The notes under the pieces are model-generated. The model made no database searches and had not been told where the DNA came from. It was given only the letters and a program-made list of their open reading frames with translations. Position numbers and translations under genes: made by a program. 64,000 nt of DNA, taken from positions 67,198 through 131,197 of IMG/VR virus record IMGVR_UViG_3300022925_000008; one strand, given 5' to 3'. Source of the stretch: a virus. Below are positions 12,229 through 37,054 of this stretch, piece by piece; within the stretch, counting starts at the first letter, position 1, and each line of letters begins with the position of its first letter.

Positions 12229-12442
12229 TTTTACTCCTTTTATCAAAATAAATTCTTATAAAATATTTTCTAGCAACTGCTAATGCAAATAATATCGAAG
12301 TCATGAAAATCGTCATCGATAGTGCAGTCATTTCGATTGATAAACAAAACGCGATTAAAACATAATTCAGAGGAAAATTTACAAAGGTTCCCAAAACCGT
12401 GTCGCTCATCGATTCTTTAAAAGCAATTTTATTGAATTTCAT
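12221..12442 (-). CDS. Small two-TM membrane protein
   Basis: Two hydrophobic segments; ES..DT..G...NF motif. Confidence 0.65.
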   Translation of the reverse strand: MKFNKIAFKESMSDTVLGTFVNFPLNYVLIAFCLSIEMTALSMTIFMTSILFALAVARKYFIRIYFDKRSKNV

Positions 12443-13281
12443 AACGTGCGATAATTTGTTAATAACAATTCCTTTCTATTTCCTTCATCCTCTCTATAGT
12501 TTTTACCAGAATGCATCGTGTATGTTAAATCCCATTGCGTCTGAAACCAATCTTGATACAATTCGCGCAAAACTTCATTAGAGTTGTATGTGATCATTAC
12601 ATTGCCCATACAATCTTGTGCATGTTCATAAAAAAGATAATGATCAAAATCTGAATGATGTTTGCCTTTCTTACCATACAAGAAAGATTTAATATCGTAG
12701 GGGGGATCAGCAAAAATAAACTCATTTGAAGTACAATCAGCAAGTAGATCTGAGTAGTCGAGATTAGTTATTAACCAATTCTGAATCAACTCTGAATATT
12801 GAGGTAATCGTTCGATGTTAGGATAACCGAAGTTTGATTGAGAGGCAGACTTACTAAATCCTGAAGATTCAGTAAGACCCGAAAAAGAACACTTATTAAT
12901 AACAAAAAAGCAAACAGAAATCCGATGTAGATCGTCAGTATTAGCAATTTCTTCTCGACATGCAAGAAAAAGTTCTTTATGTGGTGTAATTTTATCTTCA
13001 TATGAATCTGCCTCTTTCTTTAATCTAAGTAGTTCATCATACATTGCTTTCGAGTTATTTTGCAACTCTTTCCAGAAGACGTATAGATTGTAATACTTGT
13101 CATTCACCCAGACTGGTTTCTTGGGAAACCTCTTGGTGAATTCAATGGCAACCGAACCACCGCCAAGAAACGGTTCGCGAAAAGAACGAATTGTTTCTGG
13201 AAGATTTTGATGCAAGAATAAGAACTTTGTGGCGCGAGACTTACCGCCTGGATAACGTAACGGTGTTTTTAATTTTTTCAT
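12439..13281 (-). CDS. dam: DNA adenine methyltransferase (Dam/D12 class)
   Basis: LRYPGGKS, EPFLGGGSV (SAM-binding) and ADPPY (catalytic) motifs. Confidence 0.92.
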   Translation of the reverse strand: MKKLKTPLRYPGGKSRATKFLFLHQNLPETIRSFREPFLGGGSVAIEFTKRFPKKPVWVNDKYYNLYVFWKELQNNSKAMYDELLRLKKEADSYEDKITPHKELFLACREEIANTDDLHRISVCFFVINKCSFSGLTESSGFSKSASQSNFGYPNIERLPQYSELIQNWLITNLDYSDLLADCTSNEFIFADPPYDIKSFLYGKKGKHHSDFDHYLFYEHAQDCMGNVMITYNSNEVLRELYQDWFQTQWDLTYTMHSGKNYREDEGNRKELLLTNYRTL

Positions 13282-13513: not shown

Positions 13514-13954
13514 TTATGATAAGAACGTTGGTTCTAAAAGTTCTCGATTCTTCAGATGTTCTTCTTCAATGTCGTCTTTGCTTTGTCCGTGGTAAGCAAC
13601 TGCTAAATGATTTTCAATCATTAACTCGTTAACACTACGCCAAGCGTCAGAGTGGGCATCATATACAATGAACTCGCCCAAGATGCGTCCAAATTTACCT
13701 TTGGCATCTTTATGGGTTCTCATGGTGCATTCTTTTCCGAGCATTGTTTTAAGATACTTTCCTGCTGCTTTGCCGTAAATCTTCTCCACTTTATCTCGTG
13801 TGCGAGACTCAGGAGTATCAATCCCGTAAAGGCGAACACGCTGATCAAGATACCATATTCCAAAACCAAGATCAATGTCAACATCGACAGTATCGCCATC
13901 AACAACTTTTCGTATTTTGCATTTATATTCATGCATTATTATCACCTCCGTCAA
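13514..13954 (-). CDS. SNase/thermonuclease-like protein
   Basis: VVDGDT, RVRLYGIDTPESRT, KFGRIL motifs. Confidence 0.85.
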   Translation of the reverse strand: MTEVIIMHEYKCKIRKVVDGDTVDVDIDLGFGIWYLDQRVRLYGIDTPESRTRDKVEKIYGKAAGKYLKTMLGKECTMRTHKDAKGKFGRILGEFIVYDAHSDAWRSVNELMIENHLAVAYHGQSKDDIEEEHLKNRELLEPTFLS

Positions 13955-13971: not shown

Positions 13972-14397
13972 TTACCCACTGAGAGAAACTCCTTTACCCA
14001 TCTTGATCGCGTCCCATTGCTCCGGAGTGACATCATTTAATCGATGGTGCCCAGGAGTGTCTTGTCTATACTTACTATTATACTCAGGATATGGACCATA
14101 TGCTGGGTCACGAACATCCGCATTCTCTTCATCGTGAATATACAACTGAATCAGAGTGTAATGCATAATTTTCATAAGGTCTTTTCTAGCATCATGAGCA
14201 CTACCCTTGTTGCCATACCGTTTGGCATACTTGATCACATTGCCCAAGCAAAATCCAGTACCATGCCCACTGTCAATAATAACATCCGTGGCTTGATACT
14301 TGTCGGTTGCGTAGTGTTGGTCGTATGTTTTGTCGACATATTCCTGCAACTCCTTGATAAGTCTATCTTCGTAGAATTTATAATTAACCTTTGTCAT
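13972..14397 (-). CDS. DUF3310-family protein (T7 gp1.7 nucleotide-kinase-like)
   Basis: HY...QA.DVI...GFCLGNVIKYAKRYG.K...DL.K..HY pattern. Confidence 0.8.
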   Translation of the reverse strand: MTKVNYKFYEDRLIKELQEYVDKTYDQHYATDKYQATDVIIDSGHGTGFCLGNVIKYAKRYGNKGSAHDARKDLMKIMHYTLIQLYIHDEENADVRDPAYGPYPEYNSKYRQDTPGHHRLNDVTPEQWDAIKMGKGVSLSG

Positions 14398-14942
14398 AAA
14401 GTAATCTCTATATGTCGAACAATACTGTTGGTATCTTCGGCGTTATTGTGGTTGTGGGTTTCAACATTTTCCCAAAGAAGAAAGTTCTTTGCAATATTGT
14501 TATATTTAGTTTTTCTTCCTTGAATAAATTTCTCGGATTGTACCGAACCTCTATCTTTATATCTCTGCTCGACATCTTCTGATTCTAGTATCATAACGTG
14601 CAACTCGGTGTCAGGCAAATCGAGGCAGGTCTCTAGAAGAGATGCAGTGAACAGCCTATCACCTTCAAAGATAATTGATGCATCGGTTTTTGTAATAAAT
14701 TCTATCGCCTTGGGTTGAACTGCCATGCTCAATTTATCTGTTCCCTGAGCATAACCTTCTACGTCATACCAAGGGGCATACTTACCAAACACATAACAGT
14801 TTCTTGATTTTGAATAGACGCCATCTAACAATTCTACTGGTTTGGCGGGTTGCCAATCTAATGCAAGTTTATCTAATACATTTTTAACTAAGGTTGTTTT
14901 GCCAGTTCCTGGTATACCACCAATTGCAAATATATGTCTCAT
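14394..14942 (-). CDS. P-loop kinase, predicted 5-hydroxymethyluracil-DNA kinase type
   Basis: GGIPGTGKT Walker A, IIFEGDRL, R..RGS.QSEKF; coupled to the TET/JBP and AADT genes. Confidence 0.75.
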   Translation of the reverse strand: MRHIFAIGGIPGTGKTTLVKNVLDKLALDWQPAKPVELLDGVYSKSRNCYVFGKYAPWYDVEGYAQGTDKLSMAVQPKAIEFITKTDASIIFEGDRLFTASLLETCLDLPDTELHVMILESEDVEQRYKDRGSVQSEKFIQGRKTKYNNIAKNFLLWENVETHNHNNAEDTNSIVRHIEITL

Positions 14943-16279
14943 GAAAAAAACTCCTCAAGCGAAGAAGATTGTTTTTGCGGGTGGTACTTATTCAACATCT
15001 CTTCGCCACCATTCTTGCGTAAATACTCAAACCATTCAGGTTTGTCCCACATAGAAGGCGAAACACCATTCCACAATGGGCGGTGCATTGGATGAGTTTG
15101 ATCTTTACTTCTGTCGGTAACAAATTGTCTACGAATTGATTCATATTCCCAACTACCCAATTCTAGCATTTTTTCTCGAAAATAGCAAACAAGAGAAATA
15201 CGTTCCATATCTTCCAGTTTTTTCCCAGAGGGAGGAACCAGTTCTGTGTTACCGTGTATGCCATCGTGGTTATTGATCAGCAACAAATCGCCTGGACGTA
15301 TGTTAATAGCGACCCGATATTCTGGCAGAACTAGGTATCCCCCCTCCCACTCCTTATCTTTCGCAATCACTGACAGGTTGGAGAATCCTGCGTGGAGATC
15401 ACCAGCGTCACGGTGAGCAGAGGTGCGAAAGTTTTTGTTCACCGTAATTGTGGTGAACGGAGTATCCTCGCCAGCGACTCTGAACCTGGGGTCAAGTTTC
15501 GCTGCTGCTTCATTCTGTACACCATACCGTTCGGGCAAGAGTCGCTGAAACTCACTCGAGAGTTTGCGCATGAACGGATAACACTTCTCGTAAGTCTCAC
15601 GATGGTGTTCAGTATATGAAGTAGCGCGACCCCATGGGATGCGAGGATATCGATCAAAAAACCCAGCTATACCAGAGAGTACCTGATTAGCATAGGTTGT
15701 ATTTGATACATAGTTATCAAAGAGATCTTTTGCTGCTTGGGGTTGTAGATGATTTGGTAAAGCAAGGATCTCTTTTAATTTTGTTTCGAAGAAAGTTTCG
15801 TAGTTATAACCATCCTTTTCTATTTTAGATTTAATCCAAACGATCCCTCTTGGATCTTTTGGCGTTTCATAAGATGCGTGTCTTTTTTTAATTTCTTCGA
15901 TTGGGTCTTCTGTTCTTCCGAACAAAGTTGTCTGCTCTCCATTAACGAGATATTCCATAATCTCAATCTGGGACTCATCGCACCAATTACGCCCACCTTG
16001 CCTTTCGCCTTTTGGTCCAGCAGCAAGTCCACGGTTCTGTGTAGGTTGTGCTGCGTTAACAAGACCTTCGTAAGCACATTCTTGCTCTTCTGGAGTAAAA
16101 CGATTCTTACGAAACATAAAAATGCATTCTTTCTCAGAAGGTTCGGTGCGGCCAATTTCGGAGATGGGTGCATAAAAATCCATATCTTCTTCAACTAAAA
16201 GGTCATAATCAGATTCATCCATATACTTACCAAGTTTATCTTCGCAGTTATGTTTAAATTTGGAGATAATCGTTTTCAT
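14939..16279 (-). CDS. TET/JBP-family 2OG-Fe(II) dioxygenase
   Basis: FTTITVNKNFRTSAHRDAGD (HxD), GGYLV, HGNT (distal His), RISLVCY (2OG-binding Arg). Confidence 0.88.
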   Translation of the reverse strand: MKTIISKFKHNCEDKLGKYMDESDYDLLVEEDMDFYAPISEIGRTEPSEKECIFMFRKNRFTPEEQECAYEGLVNAAQPTQNRGLAAGPKGERQGGRNWCDESQIEIMEYLVNGEQTTLFGRTEDPIEEIKKRHASYETPKDPRGIVWIKSKIEKDGYNYETFFETKLKEILALPNHLQPQAAKDLFDNYVSNTTYANQVLSGIAGFFDRYPRIPWGRATSYTEHHRETYEKCYPFMRKLSSEFQRLLPERYGVQNEAAAKLDPRFRVAGEDTPFTTITVNKNFRTSAHRDAGDLHAGFSNLSVIAKDKEWEGGYLVLPEYRVAINIRPGDLLLINNHDGIHGNTELVPPSGKKLEDMERISLVCYFREKMLELGSWEYESIRRQFVTDRSKDQTHPMHRPLWNGVSPSMWDKPEWFEYLRKNGGEEMLNKYHPQKQSSSLEEFFS

Positions 16280-17241
16280 ACCATAAATTCCTCTAGTCCG
16301 GTAGATACCTGTTCAAAGTTACCAGTATCTAAGTACCATTCCATTTTATACTTTTTTATTTCATTAGTCAACCATTGTTTTTCAATGGTCTCTTCTCTTG
16401 CTTGCCACAAAGGTTTCCAGTCAATGCCATCCCAACCGTCTTGTTCCACCTTCTTAATTTCCTCTGCTTGCCTGTCAAGGTAATACCCAAGGTAACGCCC
16501 ACGACTTTTACGAAACAACTTCTTAAAGGAGCAGAGGCACGTCTCCATTGCGAAAAAGTCTGCTTTCTCGGCGACGTGAGGATATTGTAGTTTAACCTCT
16601 TGAAGTATTTCTTTCGCTTCTGATTCTAGATATGCAACCTGTTCTTTGTCCAGCTTCTTATCCACCCATTCGTCTTTACCAATGGCATAACACATACCAT
16701 TACGATGAGAGCGAGAACCGCTATGATCGTGGAACCAAAGACTATCAACATCTATATTGATATCACAACATTGTTTCAGCGTTTGCATATAAAACCAAGA
16801 AGTATATCTTCCAAACTTATGCCAAGAGTTTACTTCTTTCCAAAGTTTGTAGAAGTTATCCACTGGATTGTCGGTAAAGTCTTTGGTGAGTGCCTCGCGT
16901 TGAGTTCGTTCACCGACCCAATCTTTATAAGAAAGAAACTGGGCAGGTAAATGCCCCTTGTTCCATTTGGTGTCCGTCTGGTAACGCAATCGTTTGTAGT
17001 TCTCGTTATTCCAATTCTCAAGTCTTTCCACACCAACCAAATGCATATCAGGAAACTCGTTCCATATTATATATGCAGTCGGCCAGTAGTAAGTATTACC
17101 GTATAACCAAGACAACCAGAGTCGTTGCTCTTTGTTATACTCGAATCGATCAAAGAAATAATTCGTCATATACAGAGACGAGTCGCAGTCTTCAATCTCA
17201 AGACTGCGCCCGAACCACCGTATAAAAGTATCAGTTGACAT
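16276..17241 (-). CDS. Amino-acid:DNA transferase / alpha-glutamyl-putrescinyl-thymine pyrophosphorylase-like (HhH-glycosylase fold)
   Basis: QRLWL.WLYGNTY, KFGRYTSWFYMQTL, ETCLCSFKK motifs, plus gene context. Confidence 0.78.
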   Translation of the reverse strand: MSTDTFIRWFGRSLEIEDCDSSLYMTNYFFDRFEYNKEQRLWLSWLYGNTYYWPTAYIIWNEFPDMHLVGVERLENWNNENYKRLRYQTDTKWNKGHLPAQFLSYKDWVGERTQREALTKDFTDNPVDNFYKLWKEVNSWHKFGRYTSWFYMQTLKQCCDINIDVDSLWFHDHSGSRSHRNGMCYAIGKDEWVDKKLDKEQVAYLESEAKEILQEVKLQYPHVAEKADFFAMETCLCSFKKLFRKSRGRYLGYYLDRQAEEIKKVEQDGWDGIDWKPLWQAREETIEKQWLTNEIKKYKMEWYLDTGNFEQVSTGLEEFMV

Positions 17242-18560
17242 TAAGACTCTGAACTAAACGGGAGAACTTCAATCGTAACGTCTAGTCCCCAGTATTTCAA
17301 GAACTCTTCATTCTCGCGAATAAGATCATCCTCTCGAACCTTAACGATTTGCGACTTGCTTGTATAATGAATTATGATAGCACCTTTATTCCAACCAGTC
17401 TGTTTCATGTGTCTCATAATATAAGCACAAGCATGACCATAAGACAGTTTGTCAGCAGTAGCAGTAACACAAGCGATACCATGCTGTTCATAGTCTATGT
17501 ATTTCTTCTTCGTAAGTTCACCATCTGTGTAGGTAATCAAATTGCCTTTGATTAATCGTTCGTTCGCTTCACGAGTTTTCATCGTAATAAACGACTTGAA
17601 CGTTCCGTTGAATGCTACTTTGGTAGGAATAATTCCAGACGTCAAGAAATAATCAGTCAAAAGAACTTTAACATATTCCTTTGCTGATTCATTCGTAGGA
17701 TCAAAGTTTGGGAGTTTCTCAGAAACAATGCGATCAAACTGCATTTTGAGGTCGTTCTGAGAGTTTTTTCCACGGAAGGTGTCGCTTTCTCGGTTAAGAC
17801 CTGAACCAAGTAGTTCTTGCACAACTGGAAGATCACTAGGATCATTAGTTAGATCTGTCCACGGAACAAAGATGGTAGAAACTTCATTCCATCGTGCCCA
17901 ATCAGCAGCAGTAAGTCTAGTATTGCCATCATTAACACAATGGCTACCGTCAGGCATAACAACTACGACGATCGGAGAAAACTTTTCCCTAGCACCTTCT
18001 GGGTTTTCGTTCATATAGTCTCTGATTTTAGTTGCAGTTGCTATATTCGTTAGCACAACTCTAACCTGTTTACGAGAATATGAAAGAACAGTATCTATAG
18101 GTGTCATCACAACAGGATAAAACCCTTCTTCAATGCATTTTATGACATTTTGTGTACGCGCAGATGTTTCTGAGATGGTAGGAGTAAAATCTTCAAAGTC
18201 ATCTTCAGCAATAAAATTGATTACATTCTTCATGATATCCGGATCGACTCGCCCATCACCTTTATGTGCACTGTTAACTACATTGTAGAAGTTATCAGGA
18301 CATTCAGAGAGTCCATAGTCGAGTGCCATCCACTCAGCAGAAGTAGTCATAGAGACAGAAGGTCGTGCTAAGATAAAACGGTCAATATGACCAGCGCGAT
18401 AATCATCCCAAAACTCGTTATCATGACCTAAAGATGTTACGTAAGTTAGAGGTTCACCAGCAACTTTAGAACCAATTACCTTTTTACCATTTACTCGGTT
18501 CTTCAAACCATAGAGAATACCATAGTCTGTACCGAAAATTTTAGTTTGTTCAACGTTCAT
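17241..18560 (-). CDS. Degenerate Seg-like GIY-YIG domain fused to a ParB/Srx-like domain
   Basis: GILY..KNRVNGKKVIG...YVTS...E...FYN; PIVVV...DGNTR. Confidence 0.55.
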   Translation of the reverse strand: MNVEQTKIFGTDYGILYGLKNRVNGKKVIGSKVAGEPLTYVTSLGHDNEFWDDYRAGHIDRFILARPSVSMTTSAEWMALDYGLSECPDNFYNVVNSAHKGDGRVDPDIMKNVINFIAEDDFEDFTPTISETSARTQNVIKCIEEGFYPVVMTPIDTVLSYSRKQVRVVLTNIATATKIRDYMNENPEGAREKFSPIVVVVMPDGSHCVNDGNTRLTAADWARWNEVSTIFVPWTDLTNDPSDLPVVQELLGSGLNRESDTFRGKNSQNDLKMQFDRIVSEKLPNFDPTNESAKEYVKVLLTDYFLTSGIIPTKVAFNGTFKSFITMKTREANERLIKGNLITYTDGELTKKKYIDYEQHGIACVTATADKLSYGHACAYIMRHMKQTGWNKGAIIIHYTSKSQIVKVREDDLIRENEEFLKYWGLDVTIEVLPFSSES

Positions 18561-18623
18561 ATTTTTTTCCTTAATTAATAAAGTGATTTATTTTGACCCA
18601 CCTCAATGGCGGATACGAAAAGA

Positions 18624-18673
18624 ATTATACTCTATTTTTTTAAGAAAGTAAAGTTTATGTAAGTAATTGATTT
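18624..18673 (-). promoter_or_regulatory. Early-type promoter: IHF-like box + TATAAT
   Basis: AAATCAATTACTTA, 30 nt, TATAAT. Confidence 0.75.
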
Positions 18674-19191
18674 TGTTCAGTTTTTTTGTAAGAAGAAGCA
18701 AGAGAACCTTTTCTACCGGAGTAAAGTGCCTTGCGGATGATGGGGTCTTTGTTATAGTAGACGCCTTCTGAATAAGTCGAACCACCGATCTTGAAGATCG
18801 ATAGACTGGCGCCACTTTTCTGTTTGCCCCAGAAAAAGAACCCGCATTTCTCATAGAAGGCCACAGCATCAGGTTCTGCAGAAACGCGGAAATACAATGC
18901 TTTGTTTTCTATAGCGTAACTTAAAGAATAATCAGTTAACATTCTACCCACACCCTTGCCGCGATGTTTATTAAAAGTGTGCAACAACTGCAGGTTGGCG
19001 ACTTTGGGTTCTCGTTTAGAGATAGTCGTTATGATAGCGCCCAATAATTCATCGTTTTCCCACGCTCCCACGCAAAACTCCCATTGTTTCTGCATATTTG
19101 CTTTGGCAACAAAGGTTTTGGCAAATTTGTCTGCAGGATCTTCGGTAATACAAGAACGAAATTCTTCTAAAGTGCAACTACGCAACTTCAT
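18655..19191 (-). CDS. GNAT-family acyltransferase
   Basis: LLHTFNKHRGKGVGRML (acyl-CoA motif A), AVAFYEKCGF. Confidence 0.88.
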   Translation of the reverse strand: MKLRSCTLEEFRSCITEDPADKFAKTFVAKANMQKQWEFCVGAWENDELLGAIITTISKREPKVANLQLLHTFNKHRGKGVGRMLTDYSLSYAIENKALYFRVSAEPDAVAFYEKCGFFFWGKQKSGASLSIFKIGGSTYSEGVYYNKDPIIRKALYSGRKGSLASSYKKTEQNQLLT

Positions 19192-20068
19192 TATATACCC
19201 TTACCTTGGTACCTCTACCTTGAATTCCTCTTTCTTTGGCATATTTGGTTTTTAACCACCCAGCATATTCTTCTAAGTTCCACACAAAGGGAGGAAAGGT
19301 ATAATCATGCATGAATAAAAGTTCTGAAACTGATGGACCATCGTTCAATGCAGCATCAATAAAATCAAGGGCGAATCTAAATTGTGATTCTACCTCTGCA
19401 CGTTTTGTAGTAGAGCGAAAACAACGAAACTCAATAGTTCCAGTATGCTTCATACAATATGTGTTGATCGCATAACGAAACGGACGACCCATTGACACTC
19501 CGTCTTTGCCAGCAGCGTGCAGTTTAATAAAATGGTTGAAGTCCGTGGCAAGATTAATAATGTTGTTGCTCATATATTCTGGCATTTGTCGACCACCATC
19601 ATATTTAAGATACATCTTGGCACCCCTGGTTAATTTCATTTCATGATGATCATAGAATCCATAACACGCTTCGACAGTATCTTCTTGATTTTCCGCCACA
19701 TATGCTATTAGTTTTTTGAGAGCTGTAATATCATCTTTCAACCCAGGAACAAATACATGAAGGTGTCCATGATTGACAACGCTTGCTGTCGGAGTATCGC
19801 CATGAGCAACAAATAGATCATGCAGTTCCATTACACGGTCTGCTTGTTCTTGCCATGTTTTGGTAGGTTTTGTATTAATCTCTCCACCATAAGGAGGAGA
19901 TTCTCCGAGAGGATCACACGCCACATACTGGTATGGGGGATTGAGATTTAAAATGTCGGTCTCAGAATATTCCCAACTCCCCAGATGTTCTGGTATTTCT
20001 AACCTACGATCAATATCACCCCACTCAATTTCGTAACCCCACGTAAAATCATTCTTATCAAAACTCAT
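19178..20068 (-). CDS. Putative amidoligase (COOH-NH2 ligase, glutamine synthetase/GCL fold)
   Basis: WGYEIE, GGEINTKP, GHLHV, RYAIN, TIEFR motifs. Confidence 0.82.
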   Translation of the reverse strand: MSFDKNDFTWGYEIEWGDIDRRLEIPEHLGSWEYSETDILNLNPPYQYVACDPLGESPPYGGEINTKPTKTWQEQADRVMELHDLFVAHGDTPTASVVNHGHLHVFVPGLKDDITALKKLIAYVAENQEDTVEACYGFYDHHEMKLTRGAKMYLKYDGGRQMPEYMSNNIINLATDFNHFIKLHAAGKDGVSMGRPFRYAINTYCMKHTGTIEFRCFRSTTKRAEVESQFRFALDFIDAALNDGPSVSELLFMHDYTFPPFVWNLEEYAGWLKTKYAKERGIQGRGTKVRVYNEVA

Positions 20069-20751
20069 TGCAAATCCTCAAAAATATGTTTTATGTTAAA
20101 TGGCACAGTACAATCGTATATTTTCATTTGATCTTTTTCAACAACATAATTATGTAACTGATCAGTTTTATGTATATCCCTTAATCCTGCGCGTCTTGCA
20201 ACGTCTGCAGTAGACGTAAATATGATACCCCTTTCGTGCATACTATACCAGAGTGGACGTTCATGGTTACGAAAGGCAGTCAACGAATTGTTCTTACTGT
20301 TAAGTGCACAGACCGCCATGCTTGCGGTAGGAAAGTCAATGAATGGGTGTGAATCGTTTTCTAGACTTCTCAATATCAACTCAGAGTCATTATTAGTTTC
20401 ACACTTGTACAACCAGTTTACTTTTGGTTCTTGAGAAACAACGCCGTTGTGTGATATTGAGATATTTTCGGCAGCGAGGGGTTGGGGATATTTTAGATCA
20501 GACGTAGAGTATCTTGTATGACCTATCATGTACAGATTGCCGTTGCTATGAATTGCATCAAAGAGATCAAACTTCTGGAAGAATTCTTCGGCGGGGATAC
20601 GGTCTTTAACTGTTACCAAACCACTTTCGGTAATATATGAAAGTCCGGTCGAATGTTTTCCGCGGATTTGAGATTCATAGAATAAATTTTCAACTAGAGC
20701 GAGATCCTCTTCTTGGACATTTTTCAAATAAATTCCCAAAACTCCGCACAT
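20065..20751 (-). CDS. Class II (Ntn) glutamine amidotransferase
   Basis: N-terminal MCG, RG..STG, GHTRYST, QP, HNG, NDSE. Confidence 0.9.
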   Translation of the reverse strand: MCGVLGIYLKNVQEEDLALVENLFYESQIRGKHSTGLSYITESGLVTVKDRIPAEEFFQKFDLFDAIHSNGNLYMIGHTRYSTSDLKYPQPLAAENISISHNGVVSQEPKVNWLYKCETNNDSELILRSLENDSHPFIDFPTASMAVCALNSKNNSLTAFRNHERPLWYSMHERGIIFTSTADVARRAGLRDIHKTDQLHNYVVEKDQMKIYDCTVPFNIKHIFEDLQ

Positions 20752-20912
20752 CAATTATCTCTCTCATCTTTTTTTACAAGGTAAGTTATATTATGCCCTA
20801 TTATACTAGAATTGTCAAGGCATTTCCCACATTTCGTTCCAACTTTGTTTATCAAAAAAGGTTCTTTATCCAGCATCTTCTCAGTTATGGCATTACAAAT
20901 GCAAATGTACAT
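20751..20912 (-). CDS. BFD-like [2Fe-2S] ferredoxin, 53 aa (not in ORF track)
   Basis: MYICICNAITE...GTKCGKC (CxC...CxxC); its stop overlaps the GATase ATG (TGATG). Confidence 0.75.
   Translation of the reverse strand: MYICICNAITEKMLDKEPFLINKVGTKCGKCLDNSSIIGHNITYLVKKDERDN
20790..20818 (-). promoter_or_regulatory. Sigma70-type promoter upstream of the GATase gene
   Basis: TTGACA, 17 nt, CATAAT. Confidence 0.6.
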
Positions 20913-21020: not shown

Positions 21021-21437
21021 TTATGAAACCTCAGAAACTCTTTTTCTTAAATCGCTTGTTGAAAACCTATGGTCTCTCTTATTAAAATAAATTTCAATTC
21101 CTCGACTGGCACATATTGCGCGTCCAGTAAACTTATTATCTTTATATTCAGATCCTATTATTCTAACATCAAAATTGTACATTGTCAAGATGTCTTCGAG
21201 ATCTTGTTCAGTTTGGTATGGAATAATTTCGTCGACGTATTTAATAGCATTTAGTTGTGCGTAACGTTCTACAAGGGTTTGTACCGGAGAGTTTTTGTTT
21301 GCCCGATCAACGCTAGGGTCAACCTGTAATCCGCAGATCAAATAGTCGCACTGGTCTTTTGCTTCTCGAAGCATCGCAACATGTCCTGCGTGGAGAAGAT
21401 CGAAAGTGCTTGCAGTAAATCCTACTATACGTTCCAT
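21021..21437 (-). CDS. Cytidylyltransferase (HIGH family, TagD/glycerol-3-phosphate cytidylyltransferase-like)
   Basis: GFTASTFDLLHAGH, LICGLQ.DPS, ER, FSTSDL; start taken at MERIV. Confidence 0.88.
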   Translation of the reverse strand: MERIVGFTASTFDLLHAGHVAMLREAKDQCDYLICGLQVDPSVDRANKNSPVQTLVERYAQLNAIKYVDEIIPYQTEQDLEDILTMYNFDVRIIGSEYKDNKFTGRAICASRGIEIYFNKRDHRFSTSDLRKRVSEVS

Positions 21438-21634
21438 GATCTTCCTTCTTCGATGGCATCCTGCGCGCATTGAATATATTCGCGATCTTCTTCTGAAAGA
21501 ATGCTCCAAAATTTACTGACTTCTAATGTAAGATCATAAACTTCATCTATGTGCTCTAGATGATAATTGGATTCCATCAATTCTTGTATATAATCTAATC
21601 TAGATTTGATTTTTTGTCTTAACATTAATGCCAC
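21425..21634 (-). CDS. Hypothetical protein
   Basis: 69-aa coupled ORF. Confidence 0.6.
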   Translation of the reverse strand: MALMLRQKIKSRLDYIQELMESNYHLEHIDEVYDLTLEVSKFWSILSEEDREYIQCAQDAIEEGRSWNV

Positions 21635-26212: not shown

Positions 26213-28648
26213 CTAGAAATAATCATCAAGGGTTGCTTTTGGTTCATCTTCCCATCCTATAGCTTCTAGGATAGGTTTGAGTGGATCTAAAAAACTTTTG
26301 TCATACATTGTATCATAATCAACGTAACGGTGCAGTTTAAGTTCTGTTGGTAGTCTTTCGGGGAAAGAAATAATATTCTCTCTGATGTGGTTGGGGGTTT
26401 TGAGATAAAGATATTTAATCTTTGTACCATCATCAATCATTTCGTATTTTTTCTCGATCCCTTCTTTCTTGACGTGGTAATTATATAGTAATGCACCACG
26501 AGAATGCATTGGTGTGCCCTTACCATAAATCATTTGGCGGTCTTGGTATTTCTTTATCGCTCTTACTGTACGGGGAAATGCTATTTTTTCTGGTTCAAGT
26601 GTTCTGAATTCTGACCGAAAATCTCGAATAAATTTCTGAGCATCTTTTTCTTGACCATTTAGCAAAACATTAAAAACTTCTTTAAACTTATCGCGACAGA
26701 TCTGAGGCGTCGAAGATTTTATTGCTTCAATCCCCATAATCTTGAGCTTGGGTTCATCGTACTGTACACCTTCTGAATTATGCACCTGAAGAATGTATCG
26801 TTTCTTGGCAGTCCAGATACCACGATCAGCGATTACCTCTCGCTTCATTACCATTCTATTCTCATAGGCATTGGTTTCAATTGCTTGATACTTGTACGCG
26901 CTGGCAATTGTTTTCTCGAAATGCTCACAAACATGGTCAAGAAATTTGACGGGGTTGGCGGGGCGATGCTCTTTAACCAAATCGTTCATATTGATATATA
27001 CTGAATCAGTATCAATGGCAATGACGTAATCTTTCTTAGTACCGAGCAGAGTTTGTAACTCATCGTTTACTGCTTTCTCGGCACACAATATTGCCCGTTG
27101 ACCCGAGGTAGTAATCGCCTCAGCGATCTTAAGATCAAAATATCTAAAGTATTGATTAGCGAGTGCACCATAAAGAGAGTTCATAAGAATCTTCACTGCC
27201 ATCTGAGTATTATCTTGAATGGTCACTTCGTTGGCAAGTCGTTTGGTGGGGTTCTTGTTATATTCTTTCTGTGCGTCGAGCATTTTATTTTTGGCGGTCA
27301 CTCGATCACCATAAAACTTTTTGATTACCTTCGGTATGATACCTTCAATATCTTTTCGGTAACGACTACCGTTTGCCGCCATTGTGAAGTCGCCTTCTTC
27401 CTCGTATGTAAGGGTCTCTGGTGACATGTTATACTGCACAATAATATTAGGATAAAGAGAATTCAAATCAAAAGAACAAACCCATTCATGCATACCAATC
27501 TGAGGTTCTTTGACATATCCGCCAACGATATTCTCTTTCTCTTTATATTCTTTGGGCGGAACAATGATATTTTCTTTTAGGAGTTCATTGTAAATAACAG
27601 AGTCCCATATAGTCGTTGTTCCAAACGCATCATTATAATTACATTTTGCTTTGTACGCCATAGTCATAGCGAGAGTAATCAATCCCATTTTCTCTTCAAG
27701 GCGATCAACAAGTTCAACATCTTTAATGTTATAGTCAATAAACTTCTGATGGTCTTCGCGATATAGGTTATGCAAATTACCAAATTCTTCGTAAGATAAT
27801 TTATTTTCGCCAAGAACCTGATATGCAATATGGTCCAATTTGAATGATTCTTGTTGCCCGTAAGTTAACACACCAAATTTTTGAAATAGATCATAGTAGT
27901 CTAAACTGGCAATGCCTTCAATTTCATAAGTGATTGCGTCTTGCCCCATGCGAGTGTGAAACTTACGTTCCTTAACCAAACCCCATGGCGAAAGTTTCTT
28001 GACGCAATCATTACCTAACAAACTACCAATGCGGTTCACTAGATATGGAATGTCAAACAATTTTGTATTCCACCCAGTTATGACGTCAGGGCAGTTCTCG
28101 TGTGTTGCCCACCAGTCAGTAAACTTTAGAAGCAAATCAACCTCGGAAGTTGCCTGATAATATGCCACTGTTTTGTCAGAAAGGGTGTTATCATATTCAC
28201 CCAGACCCCACACGTAGAAAGTGTCAGAAAGATTAGACTTGCAACCAATTGCGGTAACTTCGTGCTTTGCTTCTTCTGGGTTTGGAAACCCCTGATCAGA
28301 TTGAACCTCGATATCAACGCTCATCACATTAATCTTATCTCGGTCAAACTTTATTTCGTATGGGTATTTCTCTGCCAAATATTGTGTGACAAAATTAGTC
28401 ATACCATATATGGTAAAGTTTGTCACGTCTTGATAACGCTTGATAAAATCAGACGCTTCTCTGAGAGAGTCAAACTCTACGGGTTCAACCATATTCCCAT
28501 AAAGGGATTTGTATTTACCGTTCGCTTTGGGCGTTTCAATAAACAGTTTGGGTTTGAATGGGATTTTCTGGGAAATTTTTTTGCCGTCTTTATATCCTCG
28601 AAAAAGAATATTATTTCCTACGCGGCACACATTGGTATAAAAATTCAT
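26213..28648 (-). CDS. gp43: Family B DNA polymerase (T4 gp43)
   Basis: DIEV exonuclease motif, SFDLNSLYP, KILMNSLYG, IDTDS; 811 aa with no intein-sized insert. Confidence 0.97.
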   Translation of the reverse strand: MNFYTNVCRVGNNILFRGYKDGKKISQKIPFKPKLFIETPKANGKYKSLYGNMVEPVEFDSLREASDFIKRYQDVTNFTIYGMTNFVTQYLAEKYPYEIKFDRDKINVMSVDIEVQSDQGFPNPEEAKHEVTAIGCKSNLSDTFYVWGLGEYDNTLSDKTVAYYQATSEVDLLLKFTDWWATHENCPDVITGWNTKLFDIPYLVNRIGSLLGNDCVKKLSPWGLVKERKFHTRMGQDAITYEIEGIASLDYYDLFQKFGVLTYGQQESFKLDHIAYQVLGENKLSYEEFGNLHNLYREDHQKFIDYNIKDVELVDRLEEKMGLITLAMTMAYKAKCNYNDAFGTTTIWDSVIYNELLKENIIVPPKEYKEKENIVGGYVKEPQIGMHEWVCSFDLNSLYPNIIVQYNMSPETLTYEEEGDFTMAANGSRYRKDIEGIIPKVIKKFYGDRVTAKNKMLDAQKEYNKNPTKRLANEVTIQDNTQMAVKILMNSLYGALANQYFRYFDLKIAEAITTSGQRAILCAEKAVNDELQTLLGTKKDYVIAIDTDSVYINMNDLVKEHRPANPVKFLDHVCEHFEKTIASAYKYQAIETNAYENRMVMKREVIADRGIWTAKKRYILQVHNSEGVQYDEPKLKIMGIEAIKSSTPQICRDKFKEVFNVLLNGQEKDAQKFIRDFRSEFRTLEPEKIAFPRTVRAIKKYQDRQMIYGKGTPMHSRGALLYNYHVKKEGIEKKYEMIDDGTKIKYLYLKTPNHIRENIISFPERLPTELKLHRYVDYDTMYDKSFLDPLKPILEAIGWEDEPKATLDDYF

Positions 28649-36466: not shown

Positions 36467-37054
36467 TTAACCTACTAAGAATTCAGAAAGATCTGAGTCG
36501 ACGTTGACTGTTCTTTTTTTTCTCTCTTTCTTTTCGTAATCTTTAATTGCATTATCGTTTTCTTTGATCAAGTCAATTCTTTGTTTAAGGCTTTCTACAA
36601 AGGCATGGGTTTGTCCGGCAGCCGGATTGTTTTCAAACTCTTCTGCTAAAAGAGTCTCTAGACCAGTCTCGGCAAGATATTTGAGTTTTATATCTTGCTG
36701 TTTTTTCTCTTTCTGGATTCGACGCAAGAAAGCGTACCAAGAGATCTGAGTGAAATACGCAAAGGCGTTGGGTTTTCCTGTTCTCGTGGCAGTCTCGAGA
36801 TTGTAATTTTCGATTGCCTTCAGGCAGTTTTCGACCGCGTCCATCACCATCTCTTCGCGATAGGTGTACCGAACAAAGTTGGCCTTGTGCGATAATCCCT
36901 CGGCAATCTTAAGAAAACAAGTAGCGATGTAATCTGTCACCACAGGTTTTTTAGAATTATTTTCCTTTGCCGCGTTTGCTGTTTCTACATATTCGACAAC
37001 GGCCATAGAAAAATCTGCGTTGTTAACATAATGTGGTTTGTCTTTGGGTTTCAT
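36467..37054 (-). CDS. gp55: Late-transcription sigma factor
   Basis: HYVNN, IAEGLSHK.NF..YTYREEM..DA.ENC, NAFAYFTQI. Confidence 0.96.
   Translation of the reverse strand: MKPKDKPHYVNNADFSMAVVEYVETANAAKENNSKKPVVTDYIATCFLKIAEGLSHKANFVRYTYREEMVMDAVENCLKAIENYNLETATRTGKPNAFAYFTQISWYAFLRRIQKEKKQQDIKLKYLAETGLETLLAEEFENNPAAGQTHAFVESLKQRIDLIKENDNAIKDYEKKERKKRTVNVDSDLSEFLVG

Follow-up and report, generated by a model that had tools for sequence, protein, structure and literature searches.

A conserved gene cassette of a T4-like phage predicted to hypermodify thymine after replication

Which modification of phage DNA could be produced by a gene cluster that joins a TET/JBP-family dioxygenase and a P-loop kinase to an amino-acid:DNA transferase (AADT), a class II glutamine amidotransferase (GATase), an amidoligase and a GNAT acyltransferase? 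The question is raised by the IMG/VR virus record IMGVR_UViG_3300022925_000008, a 131-kb sequence with an estimated completeness of 73%; its last 64 kb (positions 67,198 to 131,197) were analysed here and are referred to as the window. The phage is T4-like. Nearly all genes of the window lie on the minus strand, and the cluster is found inside the replication module, adjoining the genes for a family B DNA polymerase (PolB), UvsX and a DnaB-like helicase. A preliminary description of the window had listed nine genes between positions 13972 and 20912, mostly overlapping, as a single cluster for an uncharacterised hypermodified base. All nine minus-strand open reading frames (ORFs) were found at these positions; neighbouring genes overlap, by 1–14 nt, at seven of the eight junctions, and the eighth, with a gap of 94 nt, separates the GNAT gene from one coding for a 439-aa protein with GIY-YIG-like and ParB-like domains (Table 1). 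Comparison with related viral contigs identified six of the nine genes as a conserved core, and suggests that this cassette is quite probably a unit for the post-replicative hypermodification of thymine, in which the dioxygenase, the kinase and the AADT would act together.

The dioxygenase scored well above the cut-off of the Pfam family Tet_JBP (PF12851; 87 bits, cut-off 34.9, E 1e-24). Its HxD...H...R residues, already read as intact in the preliminary description, correspond to H289, D291, H342 and R360, each of which is kept by 95% or more of 79 homologs; in the profile alignment, the HxD and R-I-S-L-V motifs lined up with those of TET2. The search for a deoxyuridine monophosphate (dUMP) hydroxymethylase or a cytosine C5-methyltransferase (C5-MTase), recommended in the preliminary description, returned no match to DNA_methylase (PF00145, C5-MTases) or Thymidylat_synt (PF00303, ThyA-like enzymes) in the 131-kb record, which is 73% complete. 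The sole DNA methyltransferase encoded nearby is a Dam-type N6-adenine enzyme. The absence of a C5-MTase or ThyA-like gene from the record fits thymine as the substrate of TET, and the enzyme is predicted to be a dioxygenase that converts thymine to 5-hydroxymethyluracil (5hmU).

The kinase passed the cut-off of the Pfam family Ploopntkinase3 (PF18751; 31 bits, cut-off 27) and has a conserved Walker A motif (G9-x4-G14-K15-T). It belongs to phrog_800 (8e-12, profile positions 33–211), as does the gp54 protein of phage M6, which matched the same region of the profile (2e-39); pairwise comparison of the two proteins gave a weak alignment (23% identity, E 0.006). M6 gp54 (NC_007809.1, 41685–42248) is a proven kinase of 5-hydroxymethyl-2′-deoxyuridine (5-hmdU) in DNA. 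Its GenBank annotation is ‘terminase small subunit’, and phrog_800 is labelled likewise, which makes it likely that many phage genomes contain mis-annotated kinases of this family.

The 321-aa protein taken for an AADT, for which a profile check had been proposed, did match the Pfam family ADDT (PF18724; 88 bits, cut-off 26.2, E 1e-24). It falls in phrog_3271 (1.5e-59) together with the serine:DNA transferase gp247 of Salmonella phage ViI (28% identity, E 7e-34), while M6 gp51 is assigned to another one. Its E233-T234-x-x-C237 motif was invariant in 11 homologs, and matches both the E-T-x-L-C of M6 gp51 and residues E243/T244/C247 of PaMx11 gp46, the latter compared via the motif quoted in PMC11472151. 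In PaMx11 gp46, the Glu and Thr residues are metal ligands and the Cys attacks C6 of the base (PMC11472151). Sequence searches with the window AADT and with its family profile found no relative with a solved structure.

Of the three remaining core enzymes, the GATase is a stand-alone protein, without a fused synthase domain, that scored above the GATase_6 cut-off. As called, it begins with M-M-C-G; translation probably begins at the ATG at 20751, giving a protein of about 228 aa with an N-terminal Cys, as the preliminary description had it. The match to phrog_4736 (1e-21) begins at profile position 1. Residues C3, R31, G32, R81, N103, G104 and D123 were conserved in at least 95% of 65 homologs, and the hallmarks of these enzymes are kept: Cys1, the Asn-Gly oxyanion hole (N103-G104) and the Arg and Asp ligands of glutamine (R81 and D123). 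The GNAT protein scored above the cut-offs of three GNAT Pfam families (Acetyltransf_10, 4e-14, and Acetyltransf_1, 2e-11, among them) and contains the CoA-binding motif R77-G-K-G-V-G.

The amidoligase remained below the cut-off of Amidoligase_2 (PF12224; 15 bits, cut-off 22, E 0.023), with an alignment limited to residues 203–236. Nevertheless, all 30 of its Atlas neighbours were in Amidoligase_2 clusters (score 0.98), and its AlphaFold2 model (pLDDT 88) gave Foldseek matches to GshF, glutamine synthetase, YbdK and GmaS, the first three with E values of 6e-4 to 1e-3 and probabilities of 0.97–1.0. On the basis of this model, the protein is assigned to the glutamine-synthetase/gamma-Glu-Cys-ligase fold. 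Its top structural relatives all join the gamma-carboxylate of glutamate to an amine. No other protein of the cassette is as conserved: 697 homologs were found, the best 120 of these 697 showing 68–93% identity. Thus, the family assignments of the preliminary description stand for the GATase, GNAT, AADT, TET, kinase and DUF3310 proteins by their Pfam matches, and for the amidoligase by fold and Atlas neighbours though not by Pfam score; that of a BFD-like ferredoxin fell below its cut-off.

The amidoligase was used to follow the conservation of the neighbourhood, the locus counts given here referring to the best 80 of 310 IMG/VR contigs that encode it. A GNAT gene was present in all 80 loci, a GATase gene in 78, TET in 74, AADT in 70 and the kinase in 62. 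The usual order was TET-GATase-amidoligase-GNAT-[ParB-like]-AADT-kinase, with identities down to 40–50%. This co-occurrence is far above chance, and the conserved core consists of six genes: TET, GATase, amidoligase, GNAT, AADT and kinase. The conservation of the neighbourhood that the preliminary description had asked about is therefore observed for these six, which recur in most of the loci.

A second set of 41 IMG/VR loci, containing TET relatives with 57–89% identity, revealed three gene contexts. Type A includes genes for the GATase, a GNAT-like protein of 217–234 aa, the AADT, TET and the kinase, and lacks both the amidoligase and the ParB-like gene. Type B is the arrangement present in the window. 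In type C, TET is accompanied by a TET-associated glycosyltransferase (TAGT) and sugar-nucleotide enzymes, and neither kinase nor AADT is present. The TET relatives in contexts A and C showed 57–82% identity. Within this set, the GATase gene accompanied that of AADT, the exceptions being short or edge-cut contigs, and was never found in loci lacking AADT. The preliminary description had treated GATase, amidoligase and GNAT as one trio that builds or finishes the side chain. This does not agree with the GATase staying with the AADT in cassettes that have no amidoligase, an indication that the steps follow another order; the type A cassettes argue that the role of the GATase is independent of the ligase.

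A version of the pathway without TET was found in a contig of a Cloacimonadota metagenome-assembled genome (JAKQQL010000281.1, 4205–12234; locus L129). Its genes code for a ThyA-like enzyme, a YfbR-like nucleotidase, a deoxynucleoside monophosphate kinase, a gamma-glutamyl cyclotransferase, HMUD2, the amidoligase, the GNAT, the GATase, the AADT and HMUDK_hel; HMUD2 and HMUDK_hel are two families of 5-hmdU DNA kinases. Since the amidoligase-GNAT-GATase-AADT tetrad lies here beside a ThyA-like gene, it appears to be tied to 5-hmdU, whatever the source of the latter. This locus is the strongest comparative argument for the proposal that the TET of the window makes 5hmU. In addition, its gamma-glutamyl(amine) cyclotransferase hints at gamma-glutamyl-amine chemistry. 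A route in which TET would over-oxidise thymine to 5-carboxyuracil, followed by amidation, was considered and rejected, since this TET-less cassette has the ligase and the GATase too.

Both TET and AADT end in a short segment similar to the C-terminus of PolB. These polymerase-like tails read S-L-E-E-F-F-S in TET (14939–14965) and G-L-E-E-F-M-V in AADT (16276–16300), that of PolB being T-L-D-D-Y-F (26213–26240). TET and AADT thus end in [S/G]-L-E-E-F-[F/M]; no other ORF among the 251 of the genome fits the strict pattern, and the tails are kept in the TET and AADT homologs and in the PolB of related loci. This suggests that TET and AADT dock on the sliding clamp. The GNAT bears a similar tail in other lineages, and a 195-aa ORF elsewhere in the window (36467–37054) has D-L-S-E-F-L-V-G at its end, which resembles it more loosely.

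The pathway proposed from these comparisons would begin with the hydroxylation of thymine to 5hmU in duplex phage DNA by TET, an activity proven by others for homologous clades; the enzyme would probably be tethered to the clamp by its tail, and the GIY-YIG/ParB protein would perhaps help or target it. The kinase, to judge from the family it shares with M6 gp54, would then phosphorylate the hydroxymethyl group to yield 5-phosphomethyl-2′-deoxyuridine (5-PmdU). In the third step, suggested by the ViI gp247 family and the E-T-x-x-C motif, Cys237 of the AADT would attack C6, the phosphate would leave, and a nitrogen or oxygen nucleophile would be placed on the exocyclic methylene. We consider it quite likely that these three steps act together after replication; the succession of TET, kinase, AADT and tailoring enzymes put forward in the preliminary description fits the comparative evidence as well as the published reading (PMC8989533, PMC13229309). 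The fourth step is the most speculative. The GATase, an N-terminal nucleophile (Ntn) glutaminase, might provide the nucleophile, either as ammonia from glutamine, which would give 5-aminomethyl-2′-deoxyuridine, or as an amine taken off a gamma-glutamyl amide made by the amidoligase; the amidoligase and the GNAT would then acylate or acetylate the new amine. That the glutaminase feeds the AADT is a tentative proposal by analogy, favoured because the GATase co-varies with the AADT and not with the ligase, because enzymes structurally related to the ligase couple glutamate to an amine through its gamma-carboxylate, and because of the cyclotransferase in L129. The end product would be a bulky, amide-bearing thymine derivative that presumably shields the phage DNA from host nucleases. 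Taken as a whole, the scheme is possible rather than probable: an undescribed thymine derivative, formed when the glutaminase hands ammonia or a gamma-glutamyl-borne amine to the AADT on newly made, clamp-tethered DNA, with a swappable GIY-YIG/ParB protein setting where or whether the dioxygenase acts.

Several points weigh against this scheme. Several phage dioxygenases of clade C1 were inactive in E. coli (Burke 2021; O’Toole 2026). The TET of the window is 446 aa long and begins with a conserved stretch of some 220 aa, unlike the characterised enzymes, which have about 300 aa. The part missing from the 73% complete record could contain a C5-MTase or a hydroxymethylase. In addition, serine and not ammonia is the nucleophile of the closest characterised AADT, and no GATase is needed in the AADT pathways that have been characterised. 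The roles and order assigned to the GATase, amidoligase and GNAT are read from gene co-variation and analogy, the support as a whole being comparative and not biochemical, and a literature search found no paper reporting a measured nucleoside or a defined product for the cassette.

The same core steps might instead precede tailoring of an amino acid already bound to the DNA. The AADT would attach a free serine-like amino acid, the GNAT would acetylate its alpha-amine, and the amidoligase, using ammonia from the GATase, would turn its carboxylate into a carboxamide, giving a neutral, capped adduct. The shared PHROG of the AADT and the serine:DNA transferase ViI gp247 is consistent with this, as is the acetyltransferase of PaMx11, a precedent for acetylation on DNA (PMC8989533). 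Further, glutamine-synthetase-like ligases activate carboxylates with ATP, Ntn glutaminases normally supply ammonia to a synthetase partner, and the GATase and amidoligase genes are neighbours, and overlap, in nearly all loci. However, the type A cassettes keep the GATase, AADT, kinase and GNAT-like protein without any amidoligase, the ligase’s top structural relatives all draw their acyl group from free glutamate, at its gamma-carboxylate, and the cyclotransferase of L129 hints at gamma-glutamyl-amine chemistry and not at simple amidation, so that a capped amino acid appears somewhat doubtful. It would be far more surprising if the GATase, amidoligase and GNAT were unrelated to DNA, forming a module that modifies a peptide, a metabolite or the cell wall and adjoins the DNA genes by chance of position. 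The Pfam description of Amidoligase_2 (after Iyer et al. 2009) reportedly ties the family to GATase-like peptidases in non-DNA contexts, but here the three genes lie between TET and AADT-kinase, with overlaps, in at least 70 of the 80 loci, and they accompany the AADT into the TET-less L129. We regard as similarly improbable that the substrate of the dioxygenase is 5-methylcytosine (5mC), in a pathway through 5-hydroxymethylcytosine (5hmC), rather than thymine. Characterised phage TETs of clades A and B oxidise 5mC (PMC8256090), and the incompleteness of the record also leaves room for this possibility. Yet a C5-MTase is absent from the 131 kb, where the only nearby DNA methyltransferase is of the Dam type, the kinase and AADT families have been shown to act on 5-hmdU, the tetrad is joined in L129 to a route with a ThyA-like enzyme and 5-hmdU kinases, and contigs of this kind are held to make 5hmU (PMC8989533, PMC13229309).

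The GIY-YIG/ParB gene, to which the post-replicative thymine pathway would assign an auxiliary role, differs from its neighbours in both structure and distribution. The preliminary description had named the two domains, leaving their role uninterpreted. The 439-aa protein has no Pfam match. In its AlphaFold2 model (pLDDT 89), residues 13–95 form a GIY-YIG-like domain that aligned to I-TevI with a middling Z of 6.3 (root-mean-square deviation 2.6, 77 residues aligned). The consensus of the family is V-Y...Y-x-G...R...L-E...F-Y-N, the window copy having Val in place of the second Tyr. A ParB/Srx nucleotide-binding domain (NBD) follows at about residues 145–260; residues 134–331 aligned to pNOB8 ParB-N (Z 9.3), a profile of the family matched Noc (1.4e-5) and SbnI (1.6e-4) in the PDB, and Foldseek matches of the model included Noc, ParB, KorB and sulfiredoxin, as well as a free serine kinase. 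The C-terminal domain gave no clear structural match.

The family to which this protein belongs was detectable in 42 of the 80 amidoligase loci, mostly between the GNAT and AADT genes and at times upstream of TET. In the remaining loci the slot between GNAT and AADT was empty or occupied by proteins of about 195 aa or of 485–515 aa. These alternative occupants have no Pfam match, and their hhalign similarity to the ParB family was weak (E 0.007–0.5), the 485–515 aa proteins sharing only a D-G-N-T-R box. The window protein is 24–45% identical to its homologs, compared with 50–95% for the neighbouring genes, and TET relatives that are 78–82% identical to that of the window lack the ParB-like gene altogether. 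Within cassettes this gene is thus optional and hypervariable. Comparison with one related locus (L047) showed 84% DNA homology across the GNAT gene and the GIY-YIG-coding part, then a break of about 950 nt, and then resumption of homology exactly at the start of AADT; a second locus (L003) showed the same pattern. The replaced segment (17241–18185, compared with L047:9884–10830 and L003:13–420) is of equal length in these loci and 36–45% identical at the protein level, while its flanks are 84–94% identical in DNA. This homology of the flanks around an internal break indicates that the ParB and C-terminal parts were swapped as a segment, at the level of domains.

These features could be those of a selfish gene, a homing-endonuclease-like or other nuclease gene lodged in the cassette and possibly acting on unmodified DNA. 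Besides the I-TevI-like fold, the Y17, R59, E76, N93 pattern is conserved; the gene is found in roughly one cassette out of two, its position varies, its sequence diverges more than that of its neighbours, close TET relatives do without it, and its ParB and C-terminal parts have been replaced between conserved flanks. It is also the only gene of the cluster preceded by a gap and a promoter-like site. On the other hand, ParB homologs in such clusters activate the cognate dioxygenase (O’Toole 2026, PMC13229309), the gene always lies in a slot of the cassette, other occupants of which also bear a D-G-N-T-R ParB-like box, and its architecture, with a length of 430–445 aa, is kept over 47 cluster representatives, which suggests a selected function. 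A purely selfish gene therefore seems rather unlikely, if a serious candidate. The swapped ParB part may be an activator or targeting factor of the dioxygenase, by analogy with the simpler ParBs described by O’Toole et al.; equally, it may be part of a mobile nuclease.

The combination of enzymes is not itself new, contrary to what the preliminary description might have been taken to imply. Lee et al. (2021, NAR; PMC8989533) described IMG/VR contigs in which TET_JBP takes the place of the dUMP hydroxymethylase and adjoins 5-HMUDK and aGPT-Pplase2 (sequences 22–25 of their Figure 2), with co-associated amidoligases and amidotransferases of unknown function, and proposed that TET_JBP converts T to hmU in situ. 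The enzyme families and this proposal are the same as here; no product or order of steps was given there, and the six-gene core, its abundance, the type A, B and C modularity and the TET-less variant are added here. O’Toole et al. (2026, PNAS; PMC13229309) showed that phage enzymes of clades C1 and C2 oxidise T post-replicatively, in vivo and in vitro, and found clade C1 to be “consistently linked” to GATases, P-loop kinases and AADTs. Like the window, these clusters contain a TET/JBP gene without a neighbouring C5-MTase, together with genes for a GATase, a P-loop kinase, an AADT and a protein with a ParB-type domain. Their ParB homologs, however, combine an NBD at the N-terminus with a dimerisation domain at the C-terminus and have no DNA-binding domain, and ParB176 begins with the NBD and has no nuclease domain, whereas the 439-aa protein begins with a GIY-YIG-like domain and ends in a C-terminal domain of another kind. 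Further, the window TET is of 446 aa, against about 300 aa plus an extension, and its close relatives lack ParB. What stands of the claim of novelty is the structure of the product.

Three characterised systems show how the predicted chemistry compares with that of known hypermodified bases. PaMx11 makes 5-acetylaminomethyl-2′-deoxyuridine by means of the kinase gp49, the glycine:DNA transferase gp46, the flavin adenine dinucleotide (FAD)-dependent lyase gp47 and the acetyltransferase gp48 (PMC8989533, PMC11472151). The succession of a kinase, an AADT with the same E-T-x-x-C motif and an acetyltransferase acting on a DNA amine is similar, but PaMx11 obtains its hmU through a hydroxymethylase that acts on nucleotides, and its FAD lyase unmasks the amine from glycine; the window has no lyase, and has a glutaminase and a glutamine-synthetase-like ligase. 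Phage ViI makes 5-(2-aminoethoxy)methyl-2′-deoxyuridine with the kinases gp243 and gp67, the serine:DNA transferase gp247 and the pyridoxal phosphate (PLP)-dependent decarboxylase gp226. Its gp247 is the closest characterised AADT and shares the PHROG of the window enzyme, although ViI lacks TET, GATase and amidoligase, and the window lacks a PLP decarboxylase; at 28% identity, too low for such a transfer, the substrate specificity of gp247 cannot be extended to the window AADT. Finally, in base J synthesis (JBP1/2 and a glucosyltransferase) and in phage TET-TAGT clusters, a TET/JBP enzyme likewise makes 5hmU on DNA as a handle. In sister phages whose TET is 58–78% identical to that of the window, TAGT and sugar-nucleotide enzymes replace the kinase and AADT, the window being predicted to use phosphate activation and an amine in place of direct glycosylation.

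Table 1. Features of the gene cluster and its immediate surroundings in the window
Feature	Coordinates	Strand	Basis
Cys-rich ORF, 53 aa, possibly BFD-like	20751..20912	-	Fer2_BFD, below cut-off
Class II (Ntn) GATase, 229 aa as called	20065..20754	-	Pfam GATase_6 6e-9
Glutamine-synthetase-like COOH-NH2 ligase, Amidoligase_2-like, 296 aa	19178..20068	-	Fold and Atlas neighbours
GNAT acyl-CoA N-acyltransferase, 178 aa	18655..19191	-	Acetyltransf_10 4e-14
Promoter-like site TTTACT-17-TATAAT, in the 94-nt gap before the GIY-YIG/ParB gene	18624..18652	-	Motif scan, weak
GIY-YIG-like + ParB/Srx NBD + helical region + C-terminal alpha/beta domain, 439 aa	17241..18560	-	Structure and profile matches
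AADT (aGPT-Pplase clade 2), 321 aa	16276..17241	-	Pfam ADDT 1e-24
TET/JBP-family Fe(II)/2-oxoglutarate dioxygenase, 446 aa	14939..16279	-	Pfam Tet_JBP 1e-24
P-loop kinase, predicted 5-hmdU DNA kinase, 182 aa	14394..14942	-	Ploopntkinase3 2e-7
DUF3310 protein, 141 aa, overlapping the kinase stop	13972..14397	-	Pfam DUF3310 1e-10
Cytidylyltransferase-like protein, 162 aa, upstream of the cluster	21021..21509	-	Pfam CTP_transf_like 3e-15

The two outermost genes of the cluster do not belong to the cassette, contrary to what the preliminary description had assumed, since they were found in only one (the BFD-like ORF) and two (DUF3310) of the 80 amidoligase loci. The 53-aa ORF, which contains four Cys residues (C4, C6, C28 and C31), is lineage-specific; its alignment to Fer2_BFD (20.9 bits, cut-off 26) is limited to residues 2–14. 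DUF3310 is nevertheless frequent near the island in the T4-like lineage, and the PHROG matches of this protein include kinase fusions. Upstream of the cluster, homologs of the cytidylyltransferase-like protein (70–84% identical) adjoin TET or TAGT in five related loci (L010, L013, L016, L030 and L037), and the gene may be a leftover or a shared part of a glycosylation-type island. Downstream lie a staphylococcal-nuclease-like gene (13514–13954) and the gene for the Dam-type methyltransferase (12439–13281), both conserved together with the cluster in L002 and L003; the nuclease-like protein could act on unmodified DNA. The promoter-like site in the 94-nt gap is considered weak because the scan as a whole was at chance level (27 sites, 24 expected), and the terminator scan was likewise not above chance. 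A megablast comparison of this region with 50,697 phage records gave no match.

The hypermodification of phage DNA defeats restriction and CRISPR nucleases, and its enzymes are a source of tools for DNA labelling and sequencing chemistry. The cassette is abundant, its amidoligase being encoded in at least 310 IMG/VR contigs, and most of the best 80 of these carry the cassette. If it is fully post-replicative, as predicted, it should be transferable to E. coli as one unit. For such work, the comparative data indicate that the GATase pairs with the transferase and not with the ligase, and that many relatives can do without the ParB-like gene. Once defined, the structure of the base would be a new entry among the few known thymidine hypermodifications, and possibly a new route of DNA amination.

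A cultured phage also contains a relative of this TET. Caulobacter phage Cr30 (KF301602.1, 55518–60681; locus L125), which is T4-like, encodes a full-length TET homolog that is 39% identical to the window protein and carries the annotation of an SNF2 repair protein. At a distance of about 1.7 kb from it, Cr30 encodes a 409-aa AADT (PF18724, 1e-52), a weakly TAGT-like protein and an inositol-1-phosphate synthase. This phage might serve in the laboratory for the study of thymine modification initiated by TET.

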